DNA from: a virus | DNA: 64,000 nt | Strand: one strand, 5' to 3' | Virus record (IMG/VR): IMGVR_UViG_3300020057_000496 | Coordinates: 32,001 to 96,000 of that record | Shown: positions 35,231-49,226 of the stretch, in pieces | How positions within the stretch are numbered: the stretch's first letter is position 1 | Layout: each line of letters begins with the position of its first letter | Notes under the pieces: model-generated | Seen by the model: only the letters and a program-made list of their open reading frames with translations | What the model was told of the DNA's origin: nothing | Database searches by the model: none | Program-made: the position numbers and the translations under genes

Positions 35231-36015
35231 TACAAAAAGAAGTGCCGTCAAGCACAAAGTTGGTTCCTTCGCTCGCTCAATTCTTTGCTTGTCTCCTGCC
35301 TGCTTCGCTCGCTCTGTTTTTTTTGATTGACAAGTGCCGTTCGGCCATATCTGTGCTTGACACCAACTTTTTACTTGACATGACTCTAGAATGAGCGAAT
35401 GAGCGGCGTTCGGCCATAACTGTGCTTGAACTTGTTGCTTGACACAAACTTTATTCTTGACATCTGTCAACATAACAATTTGCACTGTGAGTGTCAATAC
35501 AAAAGATGGGACCCTATGCCGGTCCAATTTTCTGTTTGACAGGGTGGGGGGGTAGTGCTAGTGATAGTCGTGAAGATGATTCAAAATGACACGTAACCCT
35601 ATGCGGGTGGTTAGAAGTATTTCCGGGTAAGGTTATGTGGTTTATATATGTATATTTGCGTACTAAAAGACGCCAAAGTTCCAAAACAGAGCGAATAAGG
35701 GAAGGTAAGAGAGAAGAATGAATTGAATTGAGCGAATGAACCAAGTTCGAGCTTAATGAGGGGGCCTAGGTAGTCCGGGCGCCACGTCGGTGTCTCAATT
35801 TGAGTGATAATGGGTTACACTTCGACCCTGGCGGCTGCATCCGCATGCCAGGTGACGTAGACAGGGTGGTCTGAGCGTCGGAGGGGTTCTTGTTTGGGGA
35901 GGTTGTCCTTAACGCGTAACCGGCAGTGGGTGGTATTAAGTAGACATACGCGTTAAGTTTTCGCTTGATGTTAGACAAGGAATAGGTAGCTTTTTATTTA
36001 AGTTACGTAGTTAGA

Positions 36016-36117: not shown

Positions 36118-36321
36118 TTAGAAGTATTTCCAGGTAAGGTTATGCGGTTTTCGTGTACGTTCTGGTTGCCAGCCCCAAGCTGCGCTCAGGTAATGACCGT
36201 GGGCTGTACAGTTCGGAAAGTCCACACACAGATAGACAGGCAAGACGGGCTCGCGAATGATGCAACTAAATCCAGAGACCAGGTACTTACCGAAGTAGCC
36301 GGTACGAATTGTATATAACAA
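36118..36321 (-). CDS. array micro-ORF (MLYTIRTGY; Cys/His type)
   Basis: TTG start at 36321. Confidence 0.75.
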   Translation of the reverse strand: MLYTIRTGYFGKYLVSGFSCIIREPVLPVYLCVDFPNCTAHGHYLSAAWGWQPERTRKPHNLTWKYF

Positions 36322-36349
36322 GAGGTCCCCTTTTAGATACTGAACGGCG

Positions 36350-36523
36350 TTACTCCCCGGTACTAACCTGCACTGTATGCCAGGATTTACCATCTTTACT
36401 TTTCAGTAAGTAAACTTTATACTCCCTTGAGTAAGAGGCGTGTTCCTCTCCGCTAGCGTCGAAGCAGGCATCGTCAAGGACATCCCCGTACCGCCAGTAG
36501 TCTGTTTTAATGTGATACAACAT
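36350..36523 (-). CDS. array micro-ORF (MLYHIKTDY; DAxFD type)
   Basis: ATG 36523 after hairpin motif. Confidence 0.8.
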   Translation of the reverse strand: MLYHIKTDYWRYGDVLDDACFDASGEEHASYSREYKVYLLKSKDGKSWHTVQVSTGE

Positions 36524-36557
36524 AAGATGTTGATACCTCGACATCGAGACTAGTATA

Positions 36558-36731
36558 TTACCTTAATTGAGTCCAGCGCAGACTGCCGCCCAGCATCACT
36601 AGAATGATATAGTGTTTAGTCCTTTTATTGTGGGCCACATGTTCAATTTCGTATTCGTCGAAAAAAGCATCCATAAACACACCTCCGCCCCATGCCGGCC
36701 GGAAGTAATCTGTTCGAATGTGATATAGCAT
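36558..36731 (-). CDS. array micro-ORF (MLYHIRTDYF..MDAFFDE..WTQLR), not in ORF track
   Basis: 57 aa, translated by hand. Confidence 0.8.
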   Translation of the reverse strand: MLYHIRTDYFRPAWGGGVFMDAFFDEYEIEHVAHNKRTKHYIILVMLGGSLRWTQLR

Positions 36732-36860
36732 ACGTACGCGAAGGGGACGGAAGCATTACGTACGCGAAGGGGACGGAAGCATTACGTACGCGAAGGGGAC
36801 GGAAGCATTACGTACGCGAAGGGGACGGAAGCATTACGTACGCGAAGGGGACGGAAGCAT
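36731..36860. repeat. 26 bp tandem repeat x5
   Basis: (tacgtacgcgaaggggacggaagcat)5. Confidence 0.95.
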
Positions 36861-37054
36861 TACGCCATAACTCGACTTACCACCTTACCTGTCGCGCCAC
36901 TCCAAATATAGACCTTATTTGGGTTTTTAATATAAAAGTAAACATAGCTCCCCGACTGAAACTGTACATCGAAACCGGGTTCTTCTCGCTCGGTCTGGAT
37001 ATTTTCATAGTCATTAAACCTTTCCCAGTAACTTGTATTTAAAGTATACAGCAA
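36860..37054 (-). CDS. array micro-ORF (MLYTLNTSYWERF type)
   Basis: 64 aa. Confidence 0.8.
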   Translation of the reverse strand: MLYTLNTSYWERFNDYENIQTEREEPGFDVQFQSGSYVYFYIKNPNKVYIWSGATGKVVSRVMA

Positions 37055-37159
37055 AATGTCACCCGACTGAGAGGTGTCGATACTTCGACATCCAGGGCCA
37101 CGCGGACACGCCCGGCAGCGCTAAGATGAGGTGTCGTACTTCGATATCGGATTAGTATA

Positions 37160-37336
37160 TTACCTTAATTTGACCCAATTTAAGTCCCCGCACAGCATAA
37201 CGAGGACGATATGGTGTTTAGTTATCTTATTATAGGCAACATGTTCAAGTCCGTGTTCGTCGAGAAACGCGTCCAGGAACATGCCTCCGCCGCCAGCCCC
37301 TGGCCGGAAGTAGTCTGTTCGAATATAATAAAGCAC
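37160..37336 (-). CDS. array micro-ORF (MLYYIRTDY; LDAF type)
   Basis: GTG start 37336. Confidence 0.8.
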   Translation of the reverse strand: MLYYIRTDYFRPGAGGGGMFLDAFLDEHGLEHVAYNKITKHHIVLVMLCGDLNWVKLR

Positions 37337-37411
37337 GAGGTGTCCTAAGATGCCGTATATGGCATCTTGAGATGTCGCATACAACATCATATTGGTATTT
37401 TAAATGATCAA

Positions 37412-37627
37412 CTAACGGAAGTTAATAACACTATATTCTCTATTACTCCCAGCTTTTTTACGATGCCAAGACCAAGCCGGAAACTTATTATGGGCCGGAG
37501 TGCCTTCACAGAACGGCTCGACGCACGTCAGAATAGTGCCGGGTTCTTGATCAAAGAATACAATCCGCAGGCACGGAACGAAGCTCCGTGGCTGCGTCCA
37601 GTAGTCTGTTCGAATATGATACAACAC
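37412..37627 (-). CDS. array micro-ORF (MLYHIRTDYW; Cys/His type)
   Basis: 71 aa. Confidence 0.8.
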   Translation of the reverse strand: MLYHIRTDYWTQPRSFVPCLRIVFFDQEPGTILTCVEPFCEGTPAHNKFPAWSWHRKKAGSNREYSVINFR

Positions 37628-37813
37628 TTACCGTCTCAACCGAGTCGGTCCATTATGGACGCGAAGCGGACAGAAAGCATTGAGCCACATAAAGACCTTG
37701 TCTGGGTCGCTAACGTAGAAGAAAGCGTACTGAGCGGCGAACTGCACCTCAAAGCCGTCCAGTTCACCGCTCCGAAACCTTTCCCAGTAACTAGTCTTTA
37801 AAGTATACAGCAC
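37628..37813 (-). CDS. array micro-ORF (MLYTLKTSYWERF type)
   Basis: GTG start 37813. Confidence 0.8.
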   Translation of the reverse strand: MLYTLKTSYWERFRSGELDGFEVQFAAQYAFFYVSDPDKVFMWLNAFCPLRVHNGPTRLRR

Positions 37814-37848
37814 GTTACGTGAGATGTCGATACTTCGGCATCGAGGTC

Positions 37849-38031
37849 CTATTTTACCCGAACCCATTGTAGACTCCCTCTCAGTATAACAAGGACGATA
37901 CAGTGCCCAGTCTTTTGATGATAGGTCACATGTGCAAGTCCGCCCTCGTCGAAAAATGTAAGATTAATACGATTAATGTCAGTCTGGTGTGGATAAACGT
38001 CCCAGTAGTCTGTTCGAATATGATATAGCAT
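37849..38031 (-). CDS. array micro-ORF (chimera, LDAF-type C-terminus)
   Basis: first 24 codons identical to next ORF apart from the start codon. Confidence 0.8.
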   Translation of the reverse strand: MLYHIRTDYWDVYPHQTDINRINLTFFDEGGLAHVTYHQKTGHCIVLVILRGSLQWVRVK

Positions 38032-38073
38032 CACATACACTTAGTGGACGGAAGAATTACTTAAGTGATGAAA

Positions 38074-38289
38074 TTAGCGGAAACATACCTCTCGCCAACT
38101 ACGCCAGGCCCAGACTGGGTACTCATTATGAATCGAGATCCTCGCACAAGGCAAGTTGGAGCACATCCCGACACAGTGTCCGTCGGCGTCCTCCATGAAC
38201 GCGAAACGCGCGCACTTAAGATTAATACGATTAATGTCAGTCTGGTGTGGATAAACGTCCCAGTAGTCTGTTCGAATATGATATAGCAC
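38074..38289 (-). CDS. array micro-ORF (Cys/His type)
   Basis: 71 aa. Confidence 0.8.
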   Translation of the reverse strand: MLYHIRTDYWDVYPHQTDINRINLKCARFAFMEDADGHCVGMCSNLPCARISIHNEYPVWAWRSWREVCFR

Positions 38290-38333
38290 GAGATGAGATG
38301 CCTTTCTCTAATCTTGCTTGATACCGAAGGGGT

Positions 38334-38522
38334 CTACCTAACCCGAAGCCAGTCTCTCTGGGTCCAGGAGTACCACATGGAACTACCTTTTAGTATCTTA
38401 TCTCTTAAACTATCGACATTCATAAGGAAGTCCGGGGTCCCTAAGTAGTCCGAGAACGCCTGAAGCTCAGCACCGAAGTTCGAAGCCGGAACTAAATAGT
38501 CTGTTCGAATGTGATATAGCAA
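38334..38522 (-). CDS. array micro-ORF (ELQAF..GTPDF..MWYSW type)
   Basis: 62 aa. Confidence 0.8.
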   Translation of the reverse strand: MLYHIRTDYLVPASNFGAELQAFSDYLGTPDFLMNVDSLRDKILKGSSMWYSWTQRDWLRVR

Positions 38523-38567
38523 GGTGTCGTCCTCGGATACCGAGAGATGTCGTACTTCGACTTCGTG

Positions 38568-38804
38568 CTACCTTACCCGAACCCACTGCAGACGACCGCC
38601 CAGCATAACGAGGACGATATAGTGCTCAGTTCTTTTACGATAGGCCACATGTTCAAGTCCGCCTTCGTCAATGAATGCGTCCAGGAATAGCCCACCGTCA
38701 TAGGCCACATGTTCAAGTCCGCCTTCGTCAATGAATGCGTCCAGGAATAGCCCACCGTCATTTTGGTCTGGCTGGAAGTAATCTGTTCGAATACGATACA
38801 ACAT
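38568..38804 (-). CDS. array micro-ORF (LDAF type) with in-frame 60 bp duplication
   Basis: 38641-38700 identical to 38701-38760. Confidence 0.8.
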   Translation of the reverse strand: MLYRIRTDYFQPDQNDGGLFLDAFIDEGGLEHVAYDGGLFLDAFIDEGGLEHVAYRKRTEHYIVLVMLGGRLQWVRVR

Positions 38805-38829
38805 TATGGTTACGATGGAGTATGATTTA

Positions 38830-39015
38830 TCAACATAGGTTAAGGAACTTAATGTCGTAAATCCAGGAACCATTAGATATCCGTGGTGGTAGATGGTACG
38901 GGCAGTACGGGTAATCATTACACCTAAAATACAACCCACTCCCTACCTTACAGTAAACCACGCACTTAGCACGACCATATGGGGTTACGTGCCCTGTAAA
39001 TATTCTATATAACAT
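38830..39015 (-). CDS. array micro-ORF (MLYRIFTGH; Cys/His type)
   Basis: 61 aa. Confidence 0.75.
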   Translation of the reverse strand: MLYRIFTGHVTPYGRAKCVVYCKVGSGLYFRCNDYPYCPYHLPPRISNGSWIYDIKFLNLC

Positions 39016-39553
39016 TTAGGACACGAAGGACGAAGGTTCGGATCCTAGCTAGAACGAAGTCACGGTCCGAGAACTCCTCTTCTGAGATTTCAAGGAGACT
39101 TATTCTACGTTCCAGCAGGAAGAGTCTCTTATTCGAACCACTCCGGATACTGCCCTTGGTGGCGTGCCAGAAGGACCCGTTGGCCTCTATGGCTAGATGG
39201 AGGGCTGGGAGCCAGCAATCCACTACGTACTTCTCGCCAACCAGGGCCTGCTCTTCGTATTCGAACCCCAGTTCCTGCTGAAGTTCGAGCAGGACGTCGT
39301 TAAGGGCATCTTCGATCCAAGTCCGTGGCATGCTACGGACGGCACAGAGGTGCGAGCAATACCGGTCCCTTCCGCGTCTCATATTGCCAGCCTTACGGTA
39401 TAGCGGAAGGCCGCATTCGAGGCAAGTGGAGAGTCCGCCGCCGCGACGTCCGGCGTCCCACTGCTCCCATATCTTGCGGCAGACCTGGCCGCAGAAGGTG
39501 GTCAGCCTCCGTGACGACAAGAAGGGGTAGCTACAGGAAAGACAGAACCGCAT
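39005..39553 (-). CDS. Zn-finger + Vsr/DUF559-like PD-(D/E)XK endonuclease (homing-endonuclease-like)
   Basis: CxxC..FCxxxC repeats, IEDAL..YEEQ..YVVDCW..LAIEANGSFWH. Confidence 0.75.
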   Translation of the reverse strand: MRFCLSCSYPFLSSRRLTTFCGQVCRKIWEQWDAGRRGGGLSTCLECGLPLYRKAGNMRRGRDRYCSHLCAVRSMPRTWIEDALNDVLLELQQELGFEYEEQALVGEKYVVDCWLPALHLAIEANGSFWHATKGSIRSGSNKRLFLLERRISLLEISEEEFSDRDFVLARIRTFVLRVLNVI

Positions 39554-39730
39554 TGGTGCATCCTTGTTGAGTCGTACTTCGACTTACTTACGACGGAAGA
39601 ATTAGTGCAATCGATATTTGATTCGCCCAAGTCCACCATTAGGATACCTGACTAAGGTCAAGGCCCCCAGAACACCGAGATTCAGCCTGGGCACGGTCCG
39701 CTAACCCAGTAAGCTGTTTTAATATTAGAA

Positions 39731-39943
39731 TTACCAAACGAAGTAGTGCTGTTTTCCTTCAACATATCGCCAAGCCTGGAAGCTTCTGGGGGACCTCGTG
39801 AAGTGATTCCGGCATTTCGGGTGTTCTGTGCACAGATATGTCCCTTCCCCTGGATGCCCCTCAACACGCGGGCCGATCTTCAGCACGCATGGATAAAACC
39901 CTGGGTCAGCGTACAGGTAGTCTGTTTTTATGTGATATAGCAT
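39731..39943 (-). CDS. array micro-ORF (Cys/His type)
   Basis: 70 aa MLYHIKTDY. Confidence 0.8.
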   Translation of the reverse strand: MLYHIKTDYLYADPGFYPCVLKIGPRVEGHPGEGTYLCTEHPKCRNHFTRSPRSFQAWRYVEGKQHYFVW

Positions 39944-40070
39944 TATGGACCCGAAGGGGACAGAAGCATTATGGACCCGAAGGGGACAGAAGCATTATGG
40001 ACCCGAAGGGGACAGAAGCATTATGGACCCGAAGGGGACAGAAGCATTATGGACCCGAAGGGGACAGAAG
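39941..40070. repeat. 26 bp tandem repeat x5
   Basis: (cattatggacccgaaggggacagaag)5; 2 more copies at 41444-41495. Confidence 0.95.
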
Positions 40071-40089
40071 GATTATTAAGACCGGCTAA

Positions 40090-40524
40090 TTACACAACTC
40101 TGATCCAGTCCTTTTTAACCCAAGAGTACCAATTGCGTCAAGCTCCGTCACCAGAAGTCATCGCTTCTTGCCCCCTGGCGCCCGATTCCGGCAACTGTTG
40201 CCGGAATCGTTGCCGGAATGGGCGGCCGGAAACCGGGGAAGCGGTACGAGTCGGAGAGATGACGGCGAGGTCTCGGCAATGGCATCGCGCAATCATGCCG
40301 AGTTTTCGCAGCGGCTCAACCCCTCCCTGAGCCGCTTCCGGAGCGGGTTTTCTCCTTCTCAACCCTGCTCGGCTACCCACTCAAACCCCCGAAGAGCCAA
40401 TATTAAGAAAGAGGTCCGAAGTATTCAGACAGTCGAGGTCCGAAGTATGCAGACAGCCACTGAACGCACAAAGCCAGGAGCCGACAGCCAAAACTAGATA
40501 ATCTGTTCGAATAGTATATAACAT
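40090..40524 (-). pseudogene. array micro-ORF interrupted by ~240 bp GC-rich insert
   Basis: MLYTIRTDYL...DLFLNIGSSGV* (40381-40524) and separated tail RNWYSWVKKDWIRVV* (40090-40137). Confidence 0.7.
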
Positions 40525-40549
40525 GAGATGTCGTACTTCGACTCATGAA

Positions 40550-40747
40550 TCATGCGTTCATTATTAGGAAGTTCCCGTTAACCGTACAGACCCACTTATT
40601 TTTATGCAGACGGCACGCGCCGTCGAGACATGTTATATATATAAATGGGTCCCAGCCTTGCTTTCCCGGAAAATAGACCAACCGTATACAGCTTGCTGCG
40701 CCGTTACCAGCAGTGCCTAGCCAATTTGTTTTGATAGTATACAACAT
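40550..40747 (-). CDS. array micro-ORF (MLYTIKTNW; Cys/His type)
   Basis: ATG 40747. Confidence 0.75.
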   Translation of the reverse strand: MLYTIKTNWLGTAGNGAASCIRLVYFPGKQGWDPFIYITCLDGACRLHKNKWVCTVNGNFLIMNA

Positions 40748-40794
40748 GGGTAGTTTAAGTAACAACCACGTGTCGCACCTGACACCGAAGGGGC

Positions 40795-40989
40795 CTACTT
40801 AACCCGAAGCCAGCCCCCCCGGGTCCAGGAGTACCACATAGAACTACCTTTTGGTATCGAAGGTCTGAGAAAAGGCCTGTTGATATTCATAAAGAAATCC
40901 GGTGTCCCCCAGTACTCCGAGAACGCCTGAAGCTCGGCACCGAAGTCCGAAGCCGGAACTAAATAGTCTGTTTTAATGTGATATAACAT
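40795..40989 (-). CDS. array micro-ORF (ELQAF type)
   Basis: 64 aa. Confidence 0.8.
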   Translation of the reverse strand: MLYHIKTDYLVPASDFGAELQAFSEYWGTPDFFMNINRPFLRPSIPKGSSMWYSWTRGGWLRVK

Positions 40990-41011
40990 GCGGCACCTAC
41001 GTTAAGGGGCC

Positions 41012-41209
41012 TTACCGGACGCGAACCCAGGTCTTCCTAGCCCAGGAGTACCACATCGAACCACCTTCTGGTATCGGATATTCGCATTTAATGGACCTTT
41101 CAATATTAATAAAGAAGTCCGGTGTCCCCCAGTAATCCGGGAACGCCTGAAGCTCGGCTTTAAGACTCATAGCCGGAATTAAATGGTCTGTTCGAATATG
41201 ATACAGCAC
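41012..41209 (-). CDS. array micro-ORF (ELQAF type)
   Basis: 65 aa. Confidence 0.8.
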   Translation of the reverse strand: MLYHIRTDHLIPAMSLKAELQAFPDYWGTPDFFINIERSIKCEYPIPEGGSMWYSWARKTWVRVR

Positions 41210-41215
41210 GGCGCA

Positions 41216-41446
41216 TCACACTAGTGGCTTAAAATCCAGGATATACGTCTTATTTCTACTACACCGGACCCACTGGTTCGGCTTCATGATCCTTTTTTTC
41301 CTAACTACGCACAGAGTAGTCCGAAGACTAATTCGATAATACAGTATATTGAGCGGCGCATTTTCTAGCTCAATATCGAACACGCATTTTTCTAACCCGT
41401 ATACCCCGGACACGACCAGGTAGCTCGTTCTGAGTTTATATAGCAT
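41216..41446 (-). CDS. array micro-ORF (MLYKLRTSY)
   Basis: 76 aa. Confidence 0.75.
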   Translation of the reverse strand: MLYKLRTSYLVVSGVYGLEKCVFDIELENAPLNILYYRISLRTTLCVVRKKRIMKPNQWVRCSRNKTYILDFKPLV

Positions 41447-41618
41447 TATGGACCCGAAGGGGACAGAAGCATTATGGACCCGAAGGGGACAGAAGGATTA
41501 CGGACACGAAGCGGCCGGAAGGATTATTAAGACCGGCTAGTTACACAACTCTGATCCAATCCTTTTTAGCCCAAGAGTACCAATTGCGTCAAGCTCCGTC
41601 AAGCTCCGTCAAGCTCCG

Positions 41619-41900
41619 TCAAGCTAGCAGGTAGAGGGACGGCAGCATGGTTGTGAGGATCTTGAGTCGCAGGTACTCCTCATCACGTAGGCCGCCGAAT
41701 TCTATATAGATCCTATTGATACAACCGGCCCCATGTTTATGCCTGACCAGACAAAGACGGAGCCTAAAGCGAGAGAGGCTATTTTCTTGATAGGGCAAAG
41801 CTAAGCTGAAACGGAACGCAAATCCATAATTCGAATAGTACATAACAAATAAAGGGTTATTTGGCATATGCAGGTAGTCTGTTTTAATGTGATACAACAT
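41619..41900 (-). CDS. array micro-ORF (MLYHIKTDY)
   Basis: 93 aa; ends in gtcaagctcc repeats. Confidence 0.75.
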   Translation of the reverse strand: MLYHIKTDYLHMPNNPLFVMYYSNYGFAFRFSLALPYQENSLSRFRLRLCLVRHKHGAGCINRIYIEFGGLRDEEYLRLKILTTMLPSLYLLA

Positions 41901-41925
41901 GAGATGTTAATACTTCGACATCGAG

Positions 41926-42111
41926 CTATCTTACTCGAACCCACACAGGTCGGCCGTTTACCGTTGCCAGAATGCAATGCTTCTTAGTTATCTTATTATA
42001 GGCCAGATGTTCAAGTCCGTGTTCATCCCGGAACGCATCAAGAAACGCTGACATCACCCTGGACACGCTATACGTGGGCGTGAAGTAGTCTGTTCGAATA
42101 TGATATAACAC
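41926..42111 (-). CDS. array micro-ORF (LDAF type)
   Basis: GTG start 42111. Confidence 0.8.
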   Translation of the reverse strand: MLYHIRTDYFTPTYSVSRVMSAFLDAFRDEHGLEHLAYNKITKKHCILATVNGRPVWVRVR

Positions 42112-42189
42112 ATAGACACAAATAAGGAAAAGTTCACACGAAATAGTAACATTTTCCATTCATATTTCGCCAGGCCATAAGCGGGAGCA

Positions 42190-42229
42190 TTGACATCCTC
42201 CCCGCCCTAAAGGACGAGGATTCCTACTG
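42190..42229 (-). mobile_element. IS605 right end of second tnpB
   Basis: minus strand GGAATCCTCGTCCTTTAGGGCGGGGAGGATGTCAA. Confidence 0.85.
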
Positions 42230-43262
42230 CTAGCGTCGCATGCCCGCGACGGAGAATGTTCTTGGCGGCATTCACATCACGATCGTGACGTGTGCCGCAC
42301 TCCGAACAAGTCCATTCCCTTATTCCAAGACATGTAATACCTTTCGGCCTCGACTCGGGGAGTGATCCGCAAGACGAGCATGTTTGGGTGGAGTACGCTT
42401 CGTTGACCTCAACGAACAACACGCCAGCGTTTTCGCTTTTGTAATGCAGCATTGTTCGGAACGACGACCAGCCTGCATCTAAGACGGACTTTGCCATTTT
42501 AGTTTTTGCAAGGCCGGAGGCGTTCACATTACCAACGAAGATCGCACCATTCTCACTCACGAGATTGGTGCTCAGTTTGTGCAGGAAGTCTTTCCTGCGG
42601 TTTGCTATTTGAGCGTGAATCGTTTTGACTTGTTTCGTCTTGTTAGCACGCTGCGCCGTTGCCAGCTTGACCTCTGCACCACGGTAAAGGCGCTGCGCTT
42701 CGATTTTCACGCCATTAGACATTGTAGCGAAGTCTTTCAAACCAAGATCAATGCCAACGGATGCAACGCCGGTCGATTTTGCTACAGCAACTTCGACGCA
42801 GATATTGGCGTACCAACGGCCACGAGTATCTTGGCTGAAACTGCCGGAACCTAATTTGTATTGGTCTAGTCCGTAACTATCCCATAACCCAAAGCACTGA
42901 CCCGCATAGCGTATCTGACCGCCTTTGTAGGCGATGCAGTCATGTCGGAATGGAATCCAGCCCAAGGACTTGCGCGCACCAAATGACGTGCGCCAGCGCA
43001 GCTTGGCTTTCTTGAACTGCTTGCGACGCGTAACTAGTTCAGCACCGATCATTTGTACCGATGCTGAATTGATTGACAATCCTTCCTTCGTTGCTCCTGC
43101 AGTATATTTTTGCAGGTCGTAACTACTGAAGAATTTACCAGTGCGTCGGAGGTGTTTATAGGATAGTTCATTGCAGTAATTCCACACCGTATTGACATCC
43201 AACGCCAAGGCATCGAGTGCCTTAGCGTGTTTGTCTTTGATACGGACTCGCAATGTTTTCAT
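42207..43262 (-). CDS. tnpB: TnpB RNA-guided nuclease, rearranged RuvC-II
   Basis: VGIDLGLK, IFVGNV, VNEAYSTQTCSSC, CSEC, HDRDVNAAKNI. Confidence 0.95.
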   Translation of the reverse strand: MKTLRVRIKDKHAKALDALALDVNTVWNYCNELSYKHLRRTGKFFSSYDLQKYTAGATKEGLSINSASVQMIGAELVTRRKQFKKAKLRWRTSFGARKSLGWIPFRHDCIAYKGGQIRYAGQCFGLWDSYGLDQYKLGSGSFSQDTRGRWYANICVEVAVAKSTGVASVGIDLGLKDFATMSNGVKIEAQRLYRGAEVKLATAQRANKTKQVKTIHAQIANRRKDFLHKLSTNLVSENGAIFVGNVNASGLAKTKMAKSVLDAGWSSFRTMLHYKSENAGVLFVEVNEAYSTQTCSSCGSLPESRPKGITCLGIREWTCSECGTRHDRDVNAAKNILRRGHATLAVGILVL

Positions 43263-43264
43263 GT

Positions 43265-43486
43265 TTAAACTAGGCGGACAATTGCATTAGCTTGAAGCAA
43301 CCAGGGAACACCACGCGACTGTTCTGGATGAATCAAGCAGTGGTCGTTATGACACTGATATAGCCCCTGGCGACTGTCGTCAGCCGAGAGGGGTTCTGCC
43401 CTTAACGCCGAGGTGAAGCTCGCCGAGATACAGGGAACGTAGTTCCGGTGCTTAGTCCAGTAGTCTGTTCGAATAGAATACAACAT
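43265..43486 (-). CDS. array micro-ORF (MLYSIRTDYW; Cys/His type)
   Basis: ATG 43486. Confidence 0.8.
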   Translation of the reverse strand: MLYSIRTDYWTKHRNYVPCISASFTSALRAEPLSADDSRQGLYQCHNDHCLIHPEQSRGVPWLLQANAIVRLV

Positions 43487-43526
43487 CAATATCTCTCCAC
43501 GGAGGTGTGGATCACCATCGTCGTTT

Positions 43527-43709
43527 TCAAACGAGAACGACATAATCGTGGTTTTTATACGAGAACGATATACAGGCGCTCGTATCTCCCTGCCAATAAG
43601 TAAATAGCCTCAAGTTATACTCGCCAGTGTAATCTCGCATGGCACATAAGTTCTTTGTTGGGTCAAGGCCCACTGCCACAAAGTGGTCGGTTCTAATTTT
43701 ACACAGCAA
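43527..43709 (-). CDS. array micro-ORF (MLCKIRTDH)
   Basis: TTG 43709. Confidence 0.7.
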   Translation of the reverse strand: MLCKIRTDHFVAVGLDPTKNLCAMRDYTGEYNLRLFTYWQGDTSACISFSYKNHDYVVLV

Positions 43710-43710
43710 G

Positions 43711-43804
43711 GTGAGGTGTCGATACTTCGATACCGTGAGGTGTCGATACTTCGATACCGTGAGGTGTCGATACTTCGATACCGTGAGTGTCGCACTTCGA
43801 TACC
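43711..43804. repeat. 24 bp tandem expansion of the intergenic hairpin motif (x3 + 1 degenerate)
   Basis: (gtgaggtgtcgatacttcgatacc)3. Confidence 0.9.
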
Positions 43805-43813
43805 GAGGTGAGA

Positions 43814-44041
43814 TCACCTAAAATAAACAGTAATATCTAAATCACTATTGATGATTCTAAATCTAGTTTTATGATATATACTGGAGTGCGTAGCGCTACT
43901 GGAGTGCGTAGCGCAACTGTCATTACGGCAGAACCTCATCTCGTACCGCAGGGGCCTCCCGGAATCAAAGGCCATCTCTAGACAATGAAGAAATGACGGA
44001 ACGTTCGCCACGAGATAGTCCGTTCTTATTATGTACAGCAC
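43814..44041 (-). CDS. array micro-ORF (MLYIIRTDY; Cys/His type)
   Basis: 75 aa. Confidence 0.8.
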   Translation of the reverse strand: MLYIIRTDYLVANVPSFLHCLEMAFDSGRPLRYEMRFCRNDSCATHSSSATHSSIYHKTRFRIINSDLDITVYFR

Positions 44042-44043
44042 GG

Positions 44044-44253
44044 CTATCTTAACTCAACCCAGGCACTTAGTCTCCACGAAAACCACACAGAGCGGCGGGG
44101 CTTGAGCCCGCCCGGACGTCCACTGAAATCATGCGCGGAATCCACATTTAGGAACAAGTCTCCGGTGCCGTTCATGTCGGCAAAGGCTCGCAGATTGATT
44201 CCTGGCACGTCAGATGTCGTGCTTAAATAATCCGTTCTGATGTGGTACAACAT
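44044..44253 (-). CDS. array micro-ORF (LRAF..GTGDL..WFSW type)
   Basis: 69 aa; motif encoded by wholly synonymous codons. Confidence 0.8.
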   Translation of the reverse strand: MLYHIRTDYLSTTSDVPGINLRAFADMNGTGDLFLNVDSAHDFSGRPGGLKPRRSVWFSWRLSAWVELR

Positions 44254-44360
44254 ACCCTAAATAAAATATAACATTACGGATACGGAGTAGACGTAAGGAC
44301 CACGAACACTCAGCGTCGAGTCGTACTTCGATTCATCGGAAATCCTCTCGGCGGAGACCG

Positions 44361-44421
44361 GGGCAGAACGTTGTCATCACTTGGCGGAAAGCCCCAGCCT
44401 TCAGGCCGGGGAAGACGTTAC
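44361..44421 (+). mobile_element. orphan copy of the first tnpB's right end
   Basis: gggcagaacgttgtc..cactt..cggaaagccccagcctt.aggccggggaagacgttac, near-identical to 12748-12809. Confidence 0.85.
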
Positions 44422-44989
44422 CAGCGCGACGAAGCCGGTCCCACTCGGCTTGCACCTCCGGCAGCGATGACGTTGCCGCGTCCGCGTCGCCGAGCGGCTC
44501 GAGCGCGCGCCGACGAACGCTGTACGTCTTTCCGGTCCCGGGCGGCCCGTACAGGATGATGTTCGACGCCGGGCCAGTCGGCGTGTAGGTCTTCGCGGGC
44601 GTAGCGGTGGCGACCGTGTTGGTCTGCACGTCGCGCAGGATGGCGTCGATGCCGATCTTGAACTGCTGTGCCTCGGCCTCCGTGATCTCGCGCAGCTCCG
44701 GCGCCGCCGACAACTCCGGCGCCTGCATCATCGGTAGCCGGCGCCAGTAGAGTTGCGTCTCCTTCCCGCCGTCGAGCGCCAGCACGCGGGCGAGCGCGAC
44801 GACGCTATCGCCATCATGCAGAGCGATCACGTGGCCCGCGCGGATGCCCTCTTGAAAGAGCTTCGACGGTACGGCGTACGACGCGGGCAAGTCGCTCACG
44901 CGCACCTCGTCCTTCGCGGCGAGTTGGGCCCGCTGCTCGGCGGGCGCGATGTCCTTTAGAGGTACGAACCAGAAGCGGGCGTTACTCAT
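44422..44989 (-). pseudogene. mcrB: 3'-truncated McrB-like AAA+ GTPase
   Basis: NIILYGPPGTGKTY, then cut by the IS end. Confidence 0.7.
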
Positions 44990-47963
44990 CGCTCGCCCTC
45001 TCACTGCCAAACAGGCTCGACCAGCCGCCTGCGCGTTCAATGCATTGATCGATCTCGCTCGAGACCTCAACGAGTCGACCGCAGGCCTCAACGATCGAGC
45101 GGAAGGTGGCGATCTCCTCGTCAGACAGCGAACGCTCGTTCTTGCGCCGATCGTCGAGCCACTTATGACAGACCTGATAGGCCCCGATGGTAAACTCCCA
45201 CGAGGCAACGGGAACGGCGTCGAAGTAGCTCGTCGCGTTGATGAACAGACGCCCCTGCGACGCGCTGGGTGCCGTGAGTCGCATGGTCTTACCCCCCTCG
45301 CCGACCTTGGTTACTTCGCGGTCCGCGCCGTTGAACTTCGCCAACGCCCTAGGCGCCGCTACCTCCAACAAGTATGCGGACGCGAGCTGTCCTCCAAGCT
45401 CGCTCAGCTCGTGAAACGCGACCAACGTCGGGGGGACCGGAATCTTCGGGAAGTCCACCTGCAGCATGTCCAGGTACCGTTTCCGGTACTCAGGCGAGTG
45501 CAGGATCGCGACGATGTAGTCGAAGAGCAGTTCCGGCCACGAAGTCACTCCGCGAGAGGTCGGCCACTTGCTGCGTGGGCCAAGCGTCTGCTCGAAGCGC
45601 GCCACAGCACTCTCCGCGAAGTTGGCGACGCGGAGTGCTCCATCGGCCTCCGGGCTCAAGTACAGAGGGAACGCGTAGCCACGCTCCCTGCTCCTATTGG
45701 AGACGCAACTGTCATCGACGATGCGGTCGGCTACCAGCACATGGCTCCAAGTTGGGCTGACGATCTGGCGACAGACCATGAGGCAGCGATTGGTGGCCAC
45801 GGGGCGAAGATGAACAAAGACATCTTCCCGCGGCCAGTCGACCATCCAAGGCGCGTAGTAGACGTGCCGCGTGTCGAAGGGCCTGTAGAGGCACGGCTCG
45901 GGGCGAGTGCGCCACTGCCGGTCAGCCGCCACCTTCTTTCGAGCCTCGGAGAGTTTCCATCCCCTGGTATCGCCCGGCGGATATTTGCCTTCGCTTCGTT
46001 CTCCGAAAAAGCGGGAGCGAACTGCCGCATCGCTGACGGACGCGTCGCGAAAATCCTCGATGCGGTCGAGAAGGCTTTCGGCATCGAAGTCGACCACCAA
46101 ACCGTCGCGCGCGGTGATGAGCCCAGTCGTCGAGGTGGCCATCAGGTCGGTCACTTTGATGAACGTGGCAAAGTCTGCGCTTCCTCCCGCCTGCCACGGG
46201 AAGAAGAAGTAGTAGGGAGTGGAGGGCGCAAGCGCTGCGAGCCGGCCAGCGCCGGCCTCCAGCAGCGCCAGCTTCTCTTTCCTCACTCCCCAGACGTCTC
46301 GATGAAGCACGACAGACGTCGGAGCGGTGGACGAGGAAGGCGTCGCGCTGCGGACCATGATGGCGATCGCAACGCCCTGCTGAATCTGGAAGACGTTCTC
46401 GTCGGTGACCCCTTTCGGCATGCGTCGGCGATTCTTCGTGCTCCCATTCAGATCGATCACCTTAATTCGAGGGAACGTGCGCATGAGTTGCTGACGCATT
46501 CCTCGGAACGTCGGGTTGGAGAGGTAGCCGTTGTTCGTGACCATTCCCACGACGCCGAGCCCGGAGCACTCGATCCGCCACTGCGCCATACGGATGAACT
46601 TTACGTAGTCATCGTTCAGCCAGAGCTTCTTCTCGCCAAGCGACTGCCCATCGACCTCGTAGTAGCTGCCCGTCGCTTGGTCGGACGGCGACACGCCCTT
46701 CAACAGCCCGACGATCCATCCTCCGTTGTTCTGTGAGACGGCAGCGTACGGCGGGTTGCCGACGACCACGGTGATGGCCGCGCGAACCTTGGTTTCCTCC
46801 GCTAGGCGGGACTCGTCGGCCACATTCGCGCCCAGCATTTCGAGTTGCTTGCCGGTGTGCGGTTCGAGCGAGTTCGTAAGGAACACCCGCAGTCGATCGT
46901 TCTTCGCGAACGTGAAGCCGGTCTCCTGCAGCGCGAGGCCGAGCCGCAGGTGGCTTACGATGTATGGCGCCATCATCAGCTCGAAGCCGTTGATGCGCGG
47001 GAGCAGATCACGGCGGACGTAGCCGACCCACGCCTTCTTTGCGGCCTCCTCGTCGAGTCCCTGCTTCTTGAACTCGGCCTGCATCGTTTCGTGGATGACC
47101 TCGATGACGCGCAGGAGGAACGTGCCCGTGCCGAGCGCCGGGTCGAGCACCTGGACGAACGCAGCCTTCGGGTCGACGCCCTCGGGCACGCTGAGGTTCT
47201 TCGCCTTGGCGAAGGCCGCCCACGTCGTCGTGTCGGCGAGGCCGAGCGGAAGACCGAAGTCGCTCCGCAACGACGCGTGCGCCGTGCGCACGATGTAGCT
47301 GACCACCTCGTCGGGCGTGTAGTAGACGCCCTGGTCCCTGCGGAGCTGAGGGTCGTAGGCGTCGAGGAAGTCTTCGTAGAAGTGGATCGACGGGTCGCGC
47401 TTCTGGTCGCGGAAGACCTGCGCCACCGAGGTCCGCGCGAGCAGGCTCGTGATGTCGTCGAGCAGCCACGAGAGGTTCTTGTCGAAGTTGGAGTTGACCA
47501 GCTTGTCGAACAGGTCCTTGAGGAACGCGCTCGTCTCGGGGAGCAGATCCTTCAGGTTCTTGCGCGTGAACAGCGGGCTCTCGCTCCTCGAGATCCAGCG
47601 CGCGGCCAACATGCCGTAGGTGACGGTTTGCGCGTAGGCGTCGGCGAACTTCTCGACGCTGAGGGTCGCGAGCGCCTGATTGCAAATGTCGAAGAGCTGT
47701 TTCAGTGGGCCACCCCCGCGCGCGATCTCGCGCTCCAGCTCCTCGATCGCGATCGCCTTCAAATGGCGGGCACGCCAGGCGAGTTCGGTGGCGAGCTGGG
47801 CAGGCTTCTCAACCGCGCGCGGCACCGAAGCCGTGCCGTCGCTATCACTGCCGAAGACGTCGTCGCCGCTGAACGCAGCGCTCGAGGCCTTCTTCTGCGC
47901 TCGTTTTGGGGCAGCCGGTGCACCGTCGAGAATGCGGCGGACGAACTCTTCTTTGCTCAGCAT
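44982..47963 (-). CDS. type ISP/IIG-like N6-adenine methyltransferase + specificity domain (GC-rich, host-derived)
   Basis: FADAYAQTVTYG, HFYEDFL..YD, GVYYTP, LDPALGTGTF, GNPPY, LYRPFD, IGAYQVCHKWL; no N-terminal nuclease/helicase evident. Confidence 0.88.
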   Translation of the reverse strand: MLSKEEFVRRILDGAPAAPKRAQKKASSAAFSGDDVFGSDSDGTASVPRAVEKPAQLATELAWRARHLKAIAIEELEREIARGGGPLKQLFDICNQALATLSVEKFADAYAQTVTYGMLAARWISRSESPLFTRKNLKDLLPETSAFLKDLFDKLVNSNFDKNLSWLLDDITSLLARTSVAQVFRDQKRDPSIHFYEDFLDAYDPQLRRDQGVYYTPDEVVSYIVRTAHASLRSDFGLPLGLADTTTWAAFAKAKNLSVPEGVDPKAAFVQVLDPALGTGTFLLRVIEVIHETMQAEFKKQGLDEEAAKKAWVGYVRRDLLPRINGFELMMAPYIVSHLRLGLALQETGFTFAKNDRLRVFLTNSLEPHTGKQLEMLGANVADESRLAEETKVRAAITVVVGNPPYAAVSQNNGGWIVGLLKGVSPSDQATGSYYEVDGQSLGEKKLWLNDDYVKFIRMAQWRIECSGLGVVGMVTNNGYLSNPTFRGMRQQLMRTFPRIKVIDLNGSTKNRRRMPKGVTDENVFQIQQGVAIAIMVRSATPSSSTAPTSVVLHRDVWGVRKEKLALLEAGAGRLAALAPSTPYYFFFPWQAGGSADFATFIKVTDLMATSTTGLITARDGLVVDFDAESLLDRIEDFRDASVSDAAVRSRFFGERSEGKYPPGDTRGWKLSEARKKVAADRQWRTRPEPCLYRPFDTRHVYYAPWMVDWPREDVFVHLRPVATNRCLMVCRQIVSPTWSHVLVADRIVDDSCVSNRSRERGYAFPLYLSPEADGALRVANFAESAVARFEQTLGPRSKWPTSRGVTSWPELLFDYIVAILHSPEYRKRYLDMLQVDFPKIPVPPTLVAFHELSELGGQLASAYLLEVAAPRALAKFNGADREVTKVGEGGKTMRLTAPSASQGRLFINATSYFDAVPVASWEFTIGAYQVCHKWLDDRRKNERSLSDEEIATFRSIVEACGRLVEVSSEIDQCIERAGGWSSLFGSERASDE

Positions 47964-48045
47964 GCTTCCTCACTCGGTCTCACGGGCACAGTCTCGTCGA
48001 GGCGACGAAGCTGAAGGATTCGAAAGCCACTGACTAACAAATACC

Positions 48046-48255
48046 CTATCTGAGGTATATATAGCATGCCGGGCTTACCTTTTTCCGATCGTAGAGCCAA
48101 TTAGCATGCGGCAGCCCACTGTGCGCCCAGCCGTTACATAATTTAAGCGACGGACAGTGACTAAATACCCTGTCTGTGTCGACGAACGCCCCGACGGTAC
48201 AGGACCCCTGATAGGAGAGCGCCACGATATAGTCTGTTCGAATGTGATATAGCAT
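48046..48255 (-). CDS. array micro-ORF (MLYHIRTDY)
   Basis: 69 aa. Confidence 0.8.
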   Translation of the reverse strand: MLYHIRTDYIVALSYQGSCTVGAFVDTDRVFSHCPSLKLCNGWAHSGLPHANWLYDRKKVSPACYIYLR

Positions 48256-48312
48256 TACTAGACAAATTTCTATAAAACGAGCTTCCGTACATCTGCACAG
48301 CAGACAGAAGGA

Positions 48313-48549
48313 CTAGCGCATCCTGAACCAGTACCTACCTCCACAACCCAATACGTCCCCGATACTAGGGACAATAGTCTCGTCCGTATCGTTATGTATG
48401 CCGAATTTCGTTTTTATCGAACCTAATATAAGGGTATACCCTACGGTCATGTTCGAGTAGCTGTCGGCAGTAAATGCTAACTGACGGTTCCCGTCCGCCC
48501 TGATGTTACGAAACTGAGTCCAGTAGTCAGTTCTGAGACGGTATAGCAC
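48313..48549 (-). CDS. array micro-ORF (MLYRLRTDYW..WFRMR)
   Basis: 78 aa. Confidence 0.8.
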   Translation of the reverse strand: MLYRLRTDYWTQFRNIRADGNRQLAFTADSYSNMTVGYTLILGSIKTKFGIHNDTDETIVPSIGDVLGCGGRYWFRMR

Positions 48550-49006
48550 TGGCGTTCAATTCTCCGATTAACCGTAGGGCCTTCTGTGGAACGAAGTAAG
48601 CCTCCTCGCGACCGCCGTACTCCTGCAGGAACGCCCCGTCCTTGGCTTGGTCTGAATGAATCCAGCCGCGCACGACATAGCCTGGGGCTTGGCCTGTTAC
48701 AAGGACATAGACACCGGAAGGATCACCTTTTCGAACAATGAGTTCATAGGAGTGCCGGGACCGTGTTCGGACATAAACCGGGCCAACGTCCGGGCGCTTG
48801 AAGGTATCCACGCTGGAGTCATAGTACCACCCGACCGCCTTCGCAAAGGCCATCTCGCCGCACGCGCCTTCGAGGTGATACTGCCACGCCATGTCCCCCT
48901 TGCCGCCGTGTTTATCTTCTACCTGCCTGGACAGCGCCGAGACGTGTCGCATCACGCCGACGAGTGCACCGGCCATTACCTCGCTACTTGTTAATTTGAC
49001 GTTCAC
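48527..49006 (-). CDS. hypothetical phage protein (possible PD-(D/E)XK-like)
   Basis: GACGEMAFAK..PDVG..VRT. Confidence 0.65.
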   Translation of the reverse strand: MNVKLTSSEVMAGALVGVMRHVSALSRQVEDKHGGKGDMAWQYHLEGACGEMAFAKAVGWYYDSSVDTFKRPDVGPVYVRTRSRHSYELIVRKGDPSGVYVLVTGQAPGYVVRGWIHSDQAKDGAFLQEYGGREEAYFVPQKALRLIGELNASAIPSQN

Positions 49007-49226
49007 GCTTGTTCAGGTGCTTGCCGTAACCAACTGGTACTCTAAATATAACAGTAAGCCCGCCCGGCTTCCAGGCATAAAGACGCCCACGCTTCAGGCT
49101 GTCCACATAGATAGTTTTTGTATGTGCGTCTATGTCGTCGCCGTGAGGGTCGGTATGAACCGGATACCATACCGCCAGGAAGACTGCCGAATCTCTTTTA
49201 TAATAACAGGACAAAGAATACAGCAT
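48984..49226 (-). CDS. divergent first array member (MLYSLSCYY)
   Basis: preceded by the gtcgatacttcg motif at ~49234. Confidence 0.5.
   Translation of the reverse strand: MLYSLSCYYKRDSAVFLAVWYPVHTDPHGDDIDAHTKTIYVDSLKRGRLYAWKPGGLTVIFRVPVGYGKHLNKRERQINK

Follow-up and report, generated by a model that had tools for sequence, protein, structure and literature searches.

A tandem array of hypervariable small genes with a conserved N-terminal nonapeptide represents a new protein family in an uncultured phage

Array of tagged genes

We analyzed a window of 64,000 nucleotides (nt), bases 32001-96000 of the 166,852-bp IMG/VR virus record IMGVR_UViG_3300020057_000496, which is estimated to be 87% complete and derives from an uncultured phage with a full genome size of ~190 kb. 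The window contains a tandem array of small genes whose products share an N-terminal nonapeptide with the consensus MLYHIRTDY (hereafter, the tag), followed by a highly variable remainder (the body). A six-frame motif scan recovered 25 tagged open reading frames (ORFs), all of them on the minus strand between window positions 36118 and 48549. The family that they form is real, large, hypervariable and previously undescribed. A first-pass annotation, made from the sequence alone, had listed 25 intact and one interrupted co-oriented tagged ORFs; the scan confirmed the observation but corrected the length range, which is 47-93 rather than 57-93 amino acids (aa). The start motif proposed at that stage also holds, but only with slightly looser residue classes at positions 6, 8 and 9, so that the observed motif is [M/V/L]-L-Y-x-[ILV]-[RKNF]-T-[DSNG]-[YHW]. 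When degenerate members are included, the family comprises ~27 copies.

A strict degenerate DNA pattern derived from the tag had 13 matches in the whole record, all within the array, and none when the pattern was reversed as a control. When the entire genome was scanned with a position-weight matrix, a further, degenerate member emerged at window positions 43527-43709, with a TTG start and a Y3C substitution. One member is dispersed: it lies outside the window at genome positions 114980-115189 on the plus strand, directly after nrdJ (class II ribonucleotide reductase), and encodes a 69-aa protein with the tag MLYHIITSY, CxxC and CxH motifs and a late Trp. Judging by its partial tag, MLYSLSCYY, the ORF at 48984-49226 is probably a further divergent member. 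Decayed copies were found where the first-pass annotation had noticed remnants, namely, a C-terminal fragment near 35650, a decayed tag at ~39682-39730 and a B-type fragment at 41547-41582, and the interrupted member was recovered as well; a second B-type C-terminal fragment lies at 40096-40131. The features of the array are listed below in window coordinates, with the body types (A, B, C and Cys/His) defined in the section on the bodies.

36118-36321, minus strand: member, 67 aa, TTG start, Cys/His type
36350-36523, minus strand: member, 57 aa, distant A type
36558-36731, minus strand: member, 57 aa, A type, modeled at a mean confidence of 80 (see below); preceded by 5.3 copies of a 26-nt repeat
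36860-37054, minus strand: member, 64 aa, C type (YWERF)
37160-37336, minus strand: member, 58 aa, A type, GTG start
37412-37627, minus strand: member, 71 aa, Cys3-His type; GTG start immediately after the stop of the upstream member
37628-37813, minus strand: member, 61 aa, C type
37849-38031, minus strand: member, 60 aa, A type; 72-nt 5′ tract identical to that of the member starting at 38289
38074-38289, minus strand: member, 71 aa, Cys3-His type; mosaic partner of the member starting at 38031
38334-38522, minus strand: member, 62 aa, B type
38568-38804, minus strand: member, 78 aa, A type; contains a 60-nt tandem duplication (see below)
38830-39015, minus strand: member, 61 aa, Cys-rich, tag more degenerate than any other; start overlapping the 3′ end of the endonuclease-like gene
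39005-39553, minus strand: homing-endonuclease-like gene, 182 aa, inserted in the array
39731-39943, minus strand: member, 70 aa, Cys3-His type; 26-nt repeat (5.3 copies) directly upstream
40096-40524, minus strand: interrupted B-type member (N-terminal part 40381-40524, GC-rich insert ~40136-40385, C-terminal fragment 40096-40131)
40550-40747, minus strand: member, 65 aa, Cys3-His type
40795-40989, minus strand: member, 64 aa, B type
41012-41209, minus strand: member, 65 aa, B type; GTG start 6 nt past the upstream stop
41216-41446, minus strand: member, 76 aa, singleton
41547-41582, minus strand: C-terminal remnant of a B-type member
41619-41900, minus strand: member, 93 aa, singleton
41926-42111, minus strand: member, 61 aa, A type
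42192-43264, minus strand: TnpB (IS605-family) element between two members
43265-43486, minus strand: member, 73 aa, Cys3-His type
43527-43709, minus strand: degenerate member, 60 aa, TTG start, Y3C; preceded by four copies of a 24-nt repeat
43814-44041, minus strand: member, 75 aa, Cys/His type; GTG start 2 nt past the upstream stop
44044-44253, minus strand: member, 69 aa, divergent B type; eight tag codons synonymous to the common ones
44300-48000, minus strand: GC-rich (62-63%) island with a methyltransferase carrying a Type ISP C-terminal specificity domain (44982-47963) and a truncated AAA-ATPase fragment
48046-48255, minus strand: member, 69 aa, Cys/His type
48313-48549, minus strand: member, 78 aa, singleton; GTG start overlaps the end of the upstream 159-aa gene
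48984-49226, minus strand: probable divergent member, 80 aa, partial tag

Conservation of the N-terminal nonapeptide

Among the 25 members, codon 1 is ATG in 14, GTG in eight and TTG in three, and other Val or Leu codons never occur at this position. The tag is therefore the true N-terminus of the proteins and not a set of internal residues. Leu2, Tyr3 and Thr7 are invariant, with five different codons used for Leu2 and four for Thr7. Over tag codons 2-9, the proportion of nonsynonymous differences (pN) is 0.186 versus a proportion of synonymous differences (pS) of 0.761, giving a pN/pS of 0.24; the ratio drops to 0.08 over the five most conserved tag codons and is 0.95 over the ten codons that follow the tag. 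Selection on the tag versus the adjoining body, a check that the first-pass annotation had called for, thus reveals constraint on the former. The 25 tags come in 22 distinct DNA versions, and the member starting at 44253 does differ synonymously from the common tag at all eight post-start codons, as had been pointed out initially. Sequences upstream of the members are not conserved. Collectively, these data place the conservation of the tag at the protein level. Candidate causes acting on DNA, including a repeat, a recombination site, a promoter or a tRNA-like element, were rejected because synonymous sites vary freely, and gene conversion likewise fails to explain the conservation, given the high pS and the number of DNA versions.

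The conserved positions of the tag alternate (Y3, I5, T7 and Y9, plus L2), whereas positions 4, 6 and 8 vary, a pattern suggestive of a β-strand with one contacted face. Glu is absent from the tag and from the position immediately behind it, with Asp/Ser, Tyr/His and Phe/Trp/Leu found at positions 8-10, respectively.

Bodies of the tagged proteins

All-against-all BLASTP comparison of the bodies, with the tag removed, resolved at least four subfamilies, in agreement with the first-pass annotation. Group A consists of five members and a distant one, group B of four members and the interrupted copy, and group C of a pair; these are accompanied by a Cys/His group and several singletons. Within subfamilies, the ratio of nonsynonymous to synonymous substitution rates (dN/dS) of the bodies ranges from 0.16 to 0.78, indicating that the bodies are coding and evolve under purifying selection. 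Nine Cys/His members can be aligned over three invariant Cys residues, a following His and a conserved Trp, and this Cys3-His motif may well bind zinc in a zinc-knuckle-like manner. The predicted isoelectric points (pI) of the members span 4.1-9.8, that is, the proteins are not consistently basic.

Despite their variability, the bodies have common anchors. An [AVTQSYC]-F dipeptide (x-F) is present at residues 19-33 in 23 of the 25 members, compared with a mean of 6.3 and a maximum of 14 in 2000 shuffles, and a Trp is found 3-19 residues before the C-terminus in 22 of the 25. Ten members have the C-terminus W-x-[RKQE]-[VLM]-[RK], as initially estimated. With the x-F located ~22-25 residues in and followed by the C-terminal Trp in nearly the whole family, the bodies read as one diverging scaffold rather than as unrelated cargoes mounted on a tag.

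To obtain a structural view of the family, we used AlphaFold2. For an A-type member, with a family alignment of 25 rows, the predicted structure is a five-strand β-meander with a mean predicted local distance difference test (pLDDT) score of 80. The first-pass annotation had considered that all members might fold as one known domain, but the A-type model has no convincing match to a known fold: Foldseek against the PDB gave E-values of 0.9 or worse, a wide VIA-align search gave Z-scores of 3.7 or less, and a shape search of the Atlas retrieved only generic β-meander pieces. Co-folding of the A-type homodimer yielded a score of 0.01 without controls, which speaks neither for nor against binding.

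Database searches

Searches of Pfam and PHROGs with ten representative members produced nothing below E = 0.04. A profile search, along the lines proposed in the first-pass annotation, was carried out in two ways: 5.8 billion clustered proteins were searched by word index at near and longer lengths, and 1.84 billion representatives were searched exhaustively with hidden Markov models. Both retrieved this phage and its near-identical strain variants only. A scan of IMG/VR with the degenerate tag gave ten single matches and no arrays, which is approximately what is expected by chance from the information content of the pattern. The best score in the ESM Atlas feature search was 0.79, below the useful level, and megablast against phage GenBank records gave no match. 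When relatives of the phage were sought through ThyX, three loci with 50-52% identity were identified, which are not syntenic and have no arrays.

Genomic setting

A near-identical phage is present in Joint Genome Institute (JGI) sample 3300022222 and in sequencing run SRR6448219. The latter belongs to a metagenome series from benthic microbial mats of the ice-covered Lake Vanda, Antarctica (PMC11080526, PMC10909832). The head genes of the phage encode the terminase (TerL), the portal, a 638-aa Peptidase_S78 protease-scaffold fusion and an HK97-fold capsid protein. Based on these predicted products, the head module is of the HK97 type with an S78 protease and not of the T4 type. The terminase (genome positions 125708-127162) and the protease-scaffold ORF (129225-131141) match each other in an all-against-all BLASTP comparison (E < 1e−6), possibly via a common inserted element. 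Other genes of the phage encode NAMPT, ThyX, a tRNA nucleotidyltransferase and an FtsK-like ATPase.

The array is part of a minus-strand block that extends over window positions ~11,000-61,000, with genes outside the window being mostly on the plus strand. It is located downstream of ThyX, on the same strand, and is distant from the head and tail morphogenesis genes. Within or flanking the array are ThyX, the endonuclease-like gene, TnpB, the methylase and a 159-aa PHROG of unknown function. The methylase island and the matches of TnpB together provide a weak hint that the host is a Comamonadaceae-like bacterium.

Mosaicism and plasticity of the locus

The locus is mosaic and plastic. One trace of exchange is a 72-nt tract that is identical between an A-type member and a neighboring member of the Cys/His type. 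Beginning at the second base of the start codon and extending to codon 24, with unrelated flanks, it represents a recent exchange that made use of the conserved 5′ end. Another A-type member contains a perfect 60-nt tandem duplication (window positions 38640-38761) that doubles 20 residues and is absent from the database strain variant P0005. Tandem repeats abut the starts of members at 36727-36864, 39939-40076, 41442-41527 and 43711-43805. Their unit is 26 nt at three of these sites and 24 nt at one, and the 26-nt unit terminates in the ATG-CT that opens the tag. The same B-type C-terminal remnant precedes two of the repeat loci, which indicates segmental duplication.

In addition, an imperfect palindrome of ~22 nt with the core TCGAAGTATCGAC recurs in ~10 copies, mostly in the array, and often terminates exactly at the start codon of a member. 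Its positions include the following:

window 36545, 37092, 37842, 41922 and 43734-43782, minus strand: TCGAAGTATCGAC motif
window 15406, plus strand: TCGAAGTATCGAC motif
genome 96199, minus strand, and 103902, plus strand, both outside the window: TCGAAGTATCGAC motif

Folding of the motif is no more stable than that of shuffled sequences (z-scores of 0 to −1.4). Given this lack of excess hairpin stability, the motif may serve for protein binding or processing instead of forming a structural hairpin.

Several elements have been inserted in the array. The TnpB element is an insertion polymorphism, because a 98-99% identical contig from SRR6448219 joins position 43265 directly to 42191. The 3′ end of the element bears the motif GGATGTCAA. 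The nearest named homologs of this TnpB (74-75% identity) are those of Polaromonas. Altogether, 3-4 TnpB copies are present in the genome. The stop codon of the endonuclease-like gene sits within the tag of the next member, and no other tag in the array is as degenerate; conceivably, the tag DNA is, or once was, the target of the endonuclease, with the flanking copy being a resistant variant. The GC-rich island (62-63% GC) splits an array of 47-50% GC. Its methyltransferase is 993 aa long and carries the Type ISP specificity domain at the C-terminus, with no nuclease or helicase part detected; a truncated AAA-ATPase fragment (44333-45208) follows. The nearest homologs, at ~50-52%, come from Xenophilus, metagenome-assembled genomes of Myxococcales and Rhodanobacter. 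The island looks like an acquired self-protecting methylase. Finally, the insert of ~250 bp that breaks the B-type member (40136-40385) has 59% GC and an internal palindrome, and there is no second copy of it in the genome.

Two kinds of variable arrays were considered and rejected. The units are coding genes of 200-280 bp and not those of a CRISPR-like array, and a diversity-generating retroelement was dismissed because there is no RVT_1 match in the 166,852-bp record (87% complete).

Expression signals

Promoter-like and terminator-like sites are not enriched in the array, their numbers being within 1.5-2 standard deviations of those in shuffled sequences. Four of the eight GTG starts overlap the stop codon of the upstream gene or sit 0-6 nt past it. 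This suggests that members are translationally coupled on a long transcript.

Comparison with known systems

The nearest published parallel, already brought up in the first-pass annotation, is provided by the internal proteins of T-even phages, that is, IPI, IPII, IPIII and further products of the hypervariable IP locus, which share an N-terminal capsid targeting sequence of ~10 residues (PMC3012670). As in those phages, where the internal proteins are linked to counter-defence, the array encodes small, highly diverse proteins with a common N-terminal peptide from a variable locus. The analogy does not extend to specifics, however. The array tag is unrelated in sequence and has no Glu cleavage site for a prohead protease, and the phage has an HK97-type head instead of the gp21/gp22 core typical of T4. 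Furthermore, there are ~27 copies here versus a few in T-even phages, and the array bodies share the x-F and the C-terminal Trp and appear to be paralogous.

A second parallel is found in the hyperplastic regions of T4-type phages, in which small non-essential genes are shuffled via short conserved PeSL cassettes (Arbiol et al. 2010, PMC2839356). Both these regions and the array are clusters of small ORFans that gain, lose and exchange genes by short-homology recombination. In the array, the available homology is represented by the recurrent intergenic motif, the 24-26-nt repeats and the tag DNA, with the 72-nt exchange being the one documented case. PeSLs consist of a strong σ70-like promoter and a terminator stem-loop placed between unrelated genes, whereas the array genes constitute one family, their promoter- and terminator-like sites are not above chance, and the recurrent motif folds like shuffled sequences.

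At a purely conceptual level, the array can also be compared with the multigene families (MGFs) of large DNA viruses, for example, MGF110 and MGF360 of African swine fever virus. These are tandem paralogs of variable copy number in plastic regions, undergo birth-and-death evolution and are thought to modulate host responses. The similarity lies in a tandem, variable family of paralogs occupying a plastic region; unlike the array, these MGFs belong to eukaryotic viruses, encode larger proteins and have no invariant N-terminal nonapeptide.

Possible function and evolution of the family

The explanation that we favor, tentatively and at slightly less than even confidence, is that the array represents a multigene family specific to this lineage, the small scaffolded products of which are binders that probably act in counter-defence or host takeover. 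According to this scenario, one small, fast-diverging scaffold would have been amplified by tandem duplication to ~27 copies in a hyperplastic accessory region of a leftward operon. The scaffold would be held by three anchors, namely, the β-strand-like N-terminal nonapeptide with its invariant face formed by Y3, I5, T7 and Y9 plus L2, the x-F strand ~22-25 residues in, and a C-terminal Trp strand, in many cases with Arg or Lys at its end. The anchors would be separated by a hypervariable segment, which in about nine members includes the putative zinc-knuckle-like Cys3-His motif. This segment would be the specificity surface, and the anchors would serve as the constant part, be it a scaffold or a docking edge, with the tag as the invariant strand. 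The products would then amount to a battery of small binders or inhibitors directed against variable host targets, most likely those of defence or takeover. Their translation would rely largely on coupling within a polycistronic mRNA, and their diversity would arise through duplication, decay and recombination primed within the conserved 5′ end.

Several observations weigh against this explanation. Profile-profile comparison of the tag-less subfamily bodies with hhalign was not significant, the best P-value being 0.035 for A versus B, so that common descent of all bodies hangs on the three short anchors. In the AlphaFold2 model of the A-type member, residues 1-9 have no regular structure and a pLDDT of ~64, and the model of a Cys/His member has a pLDDT of 56, too low to be used, with the tag below 50. 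Although derived from shallow alignments, the models weakly favor a tag that is not buried, and such a placement would suit a free peptide no less well than a scaffold strand. In addition, a Shine-Dalgarno-like motif is present upstream of five of the 25 members, a frequency close to background, as compared with 38% of long ORFs and 14% of random positions.

It is possible, though doubtful, that the nonapeptide is a portable docking peptide that plugs ~27 interchangeable mini-binders into one machine, which could be the HK97-type procapsid or ejection apparatus or a hub protein of the host, with recombination at the tag renewing the diversity. The array would in that case be a natural library of tagged effectors operating with a head other than that of T4. 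It is unlikely that the tag is a portable address that takes all members to one partner, such as the procapsid interior, from which they would be injected as counter-defence proteins. An address would account for the tag being the most constrained part of every member, located at the very N-terminus, and for its position outside the regular fold in both models; the swap of a module consisting of the tag and 15 further residues between two body types and the presence of the methylase island in the same locus are also in line with it. On the other hand, the tag resembles that of T4 neither in sequence nor in having a Glu-type cleavage site, the head is of the HK97 type with an S78 protease-scaffold fusion and has no T4 core, and the whole-genome position-weight scan did not detect the tag on any other protein of the phage. 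Moreover, the genes reside in the leftward block with nucleotide-metabolism genes (ThyX) and not with late genes, the bodies have further anchors in common, and, with the pI range given above, the proteins are not consistently basic. The library of tagged effectors put forward in the first-pass annotation is thus upheld as regards a conserved, terminal tag and a hypervariable family, but the bodies do not look independent of each other and the testable features of T4 are absent.

Other explanations shift the role of the tag from binding to control of expression or to biosynthesis, or deny it a role altogether. The N-terminus might coordinate the production of the members, either as a nascent-peptide or translational-ramp element that offsets weak ribosome-binding sites, or as a degron that synchronizes a short half-life through a host or phage protease. 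Residues 3-5 can strongly influence protein yield, and the degrons of Lon and ClpXP are short terminal peptides. The scarcity of Shine-Dalgarno-like motifs and the exactly N-terminal, aromatic- and aliphatic-rich element constrained at the amino acid level agree with such control. We nevertheless regard it as quite improbable, because nine positions with three invariant residues represent more constraint than known ramp effects require, there is no match to a described degron class, and no phage protease or adaptor gene adjoins the array. Alternatively, the copies could be selfish or neutral by-products of a junk-tolerant region, with their 5′ ends homogenized by gene conversion. The remnants, the tandem repeats, TnpB, the endonuclease-like gene and the identical 72-nt conversion tract are what such a region would be expected to accumulate, yet the synonymous sites of the tag are as diverged as those of the bodies (pS 0.76; 22 DNA versions in 25 members), the bodies are under purifying selection and most ORFs are intact, making neutral expansion very unlikely. 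Least credible, to the point of being nearly negligible, is a library of precursors of ribosomally synthesized and post-translationally modified peptides, in which the tag would be the leader recognized by a modifying enzyme and the bodies the cores. A constant N-terminus with a variable remainder in many tandem copies does resemble prochlorosin-type sets, but the leader would have just nine residues and the bodies 40-85, the latter have predicted β-structure and conserved anchors, and a modifying enzyme, a protease and an exporter are all missing from the array and its flanks.

Significance

The family described here is new; the kind of system to which it belongs, an expanded family of fast-evolving small proteins in a plastic phage region, is already known. 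About 8 kb of coding sequence, or ~4% of a phage of ~190 kb, is devoted to this one undescribed family, the sole strictly constant part of which is a nine-residue N-terminus under strong selection at the amino acid level. If the nonapeptide is a docking or address peptide, the principle of the T4 internal proteins would extend to an unrelated type of head, and the tag would represent a compact natural means of protein loading. If, instead, the array is a library of binders, it would offer a natural example of a minimal β or zinc scaffold that tolerates extreme loop variation, and new inhibitors of bacterial defence systems would likely be found among its members.

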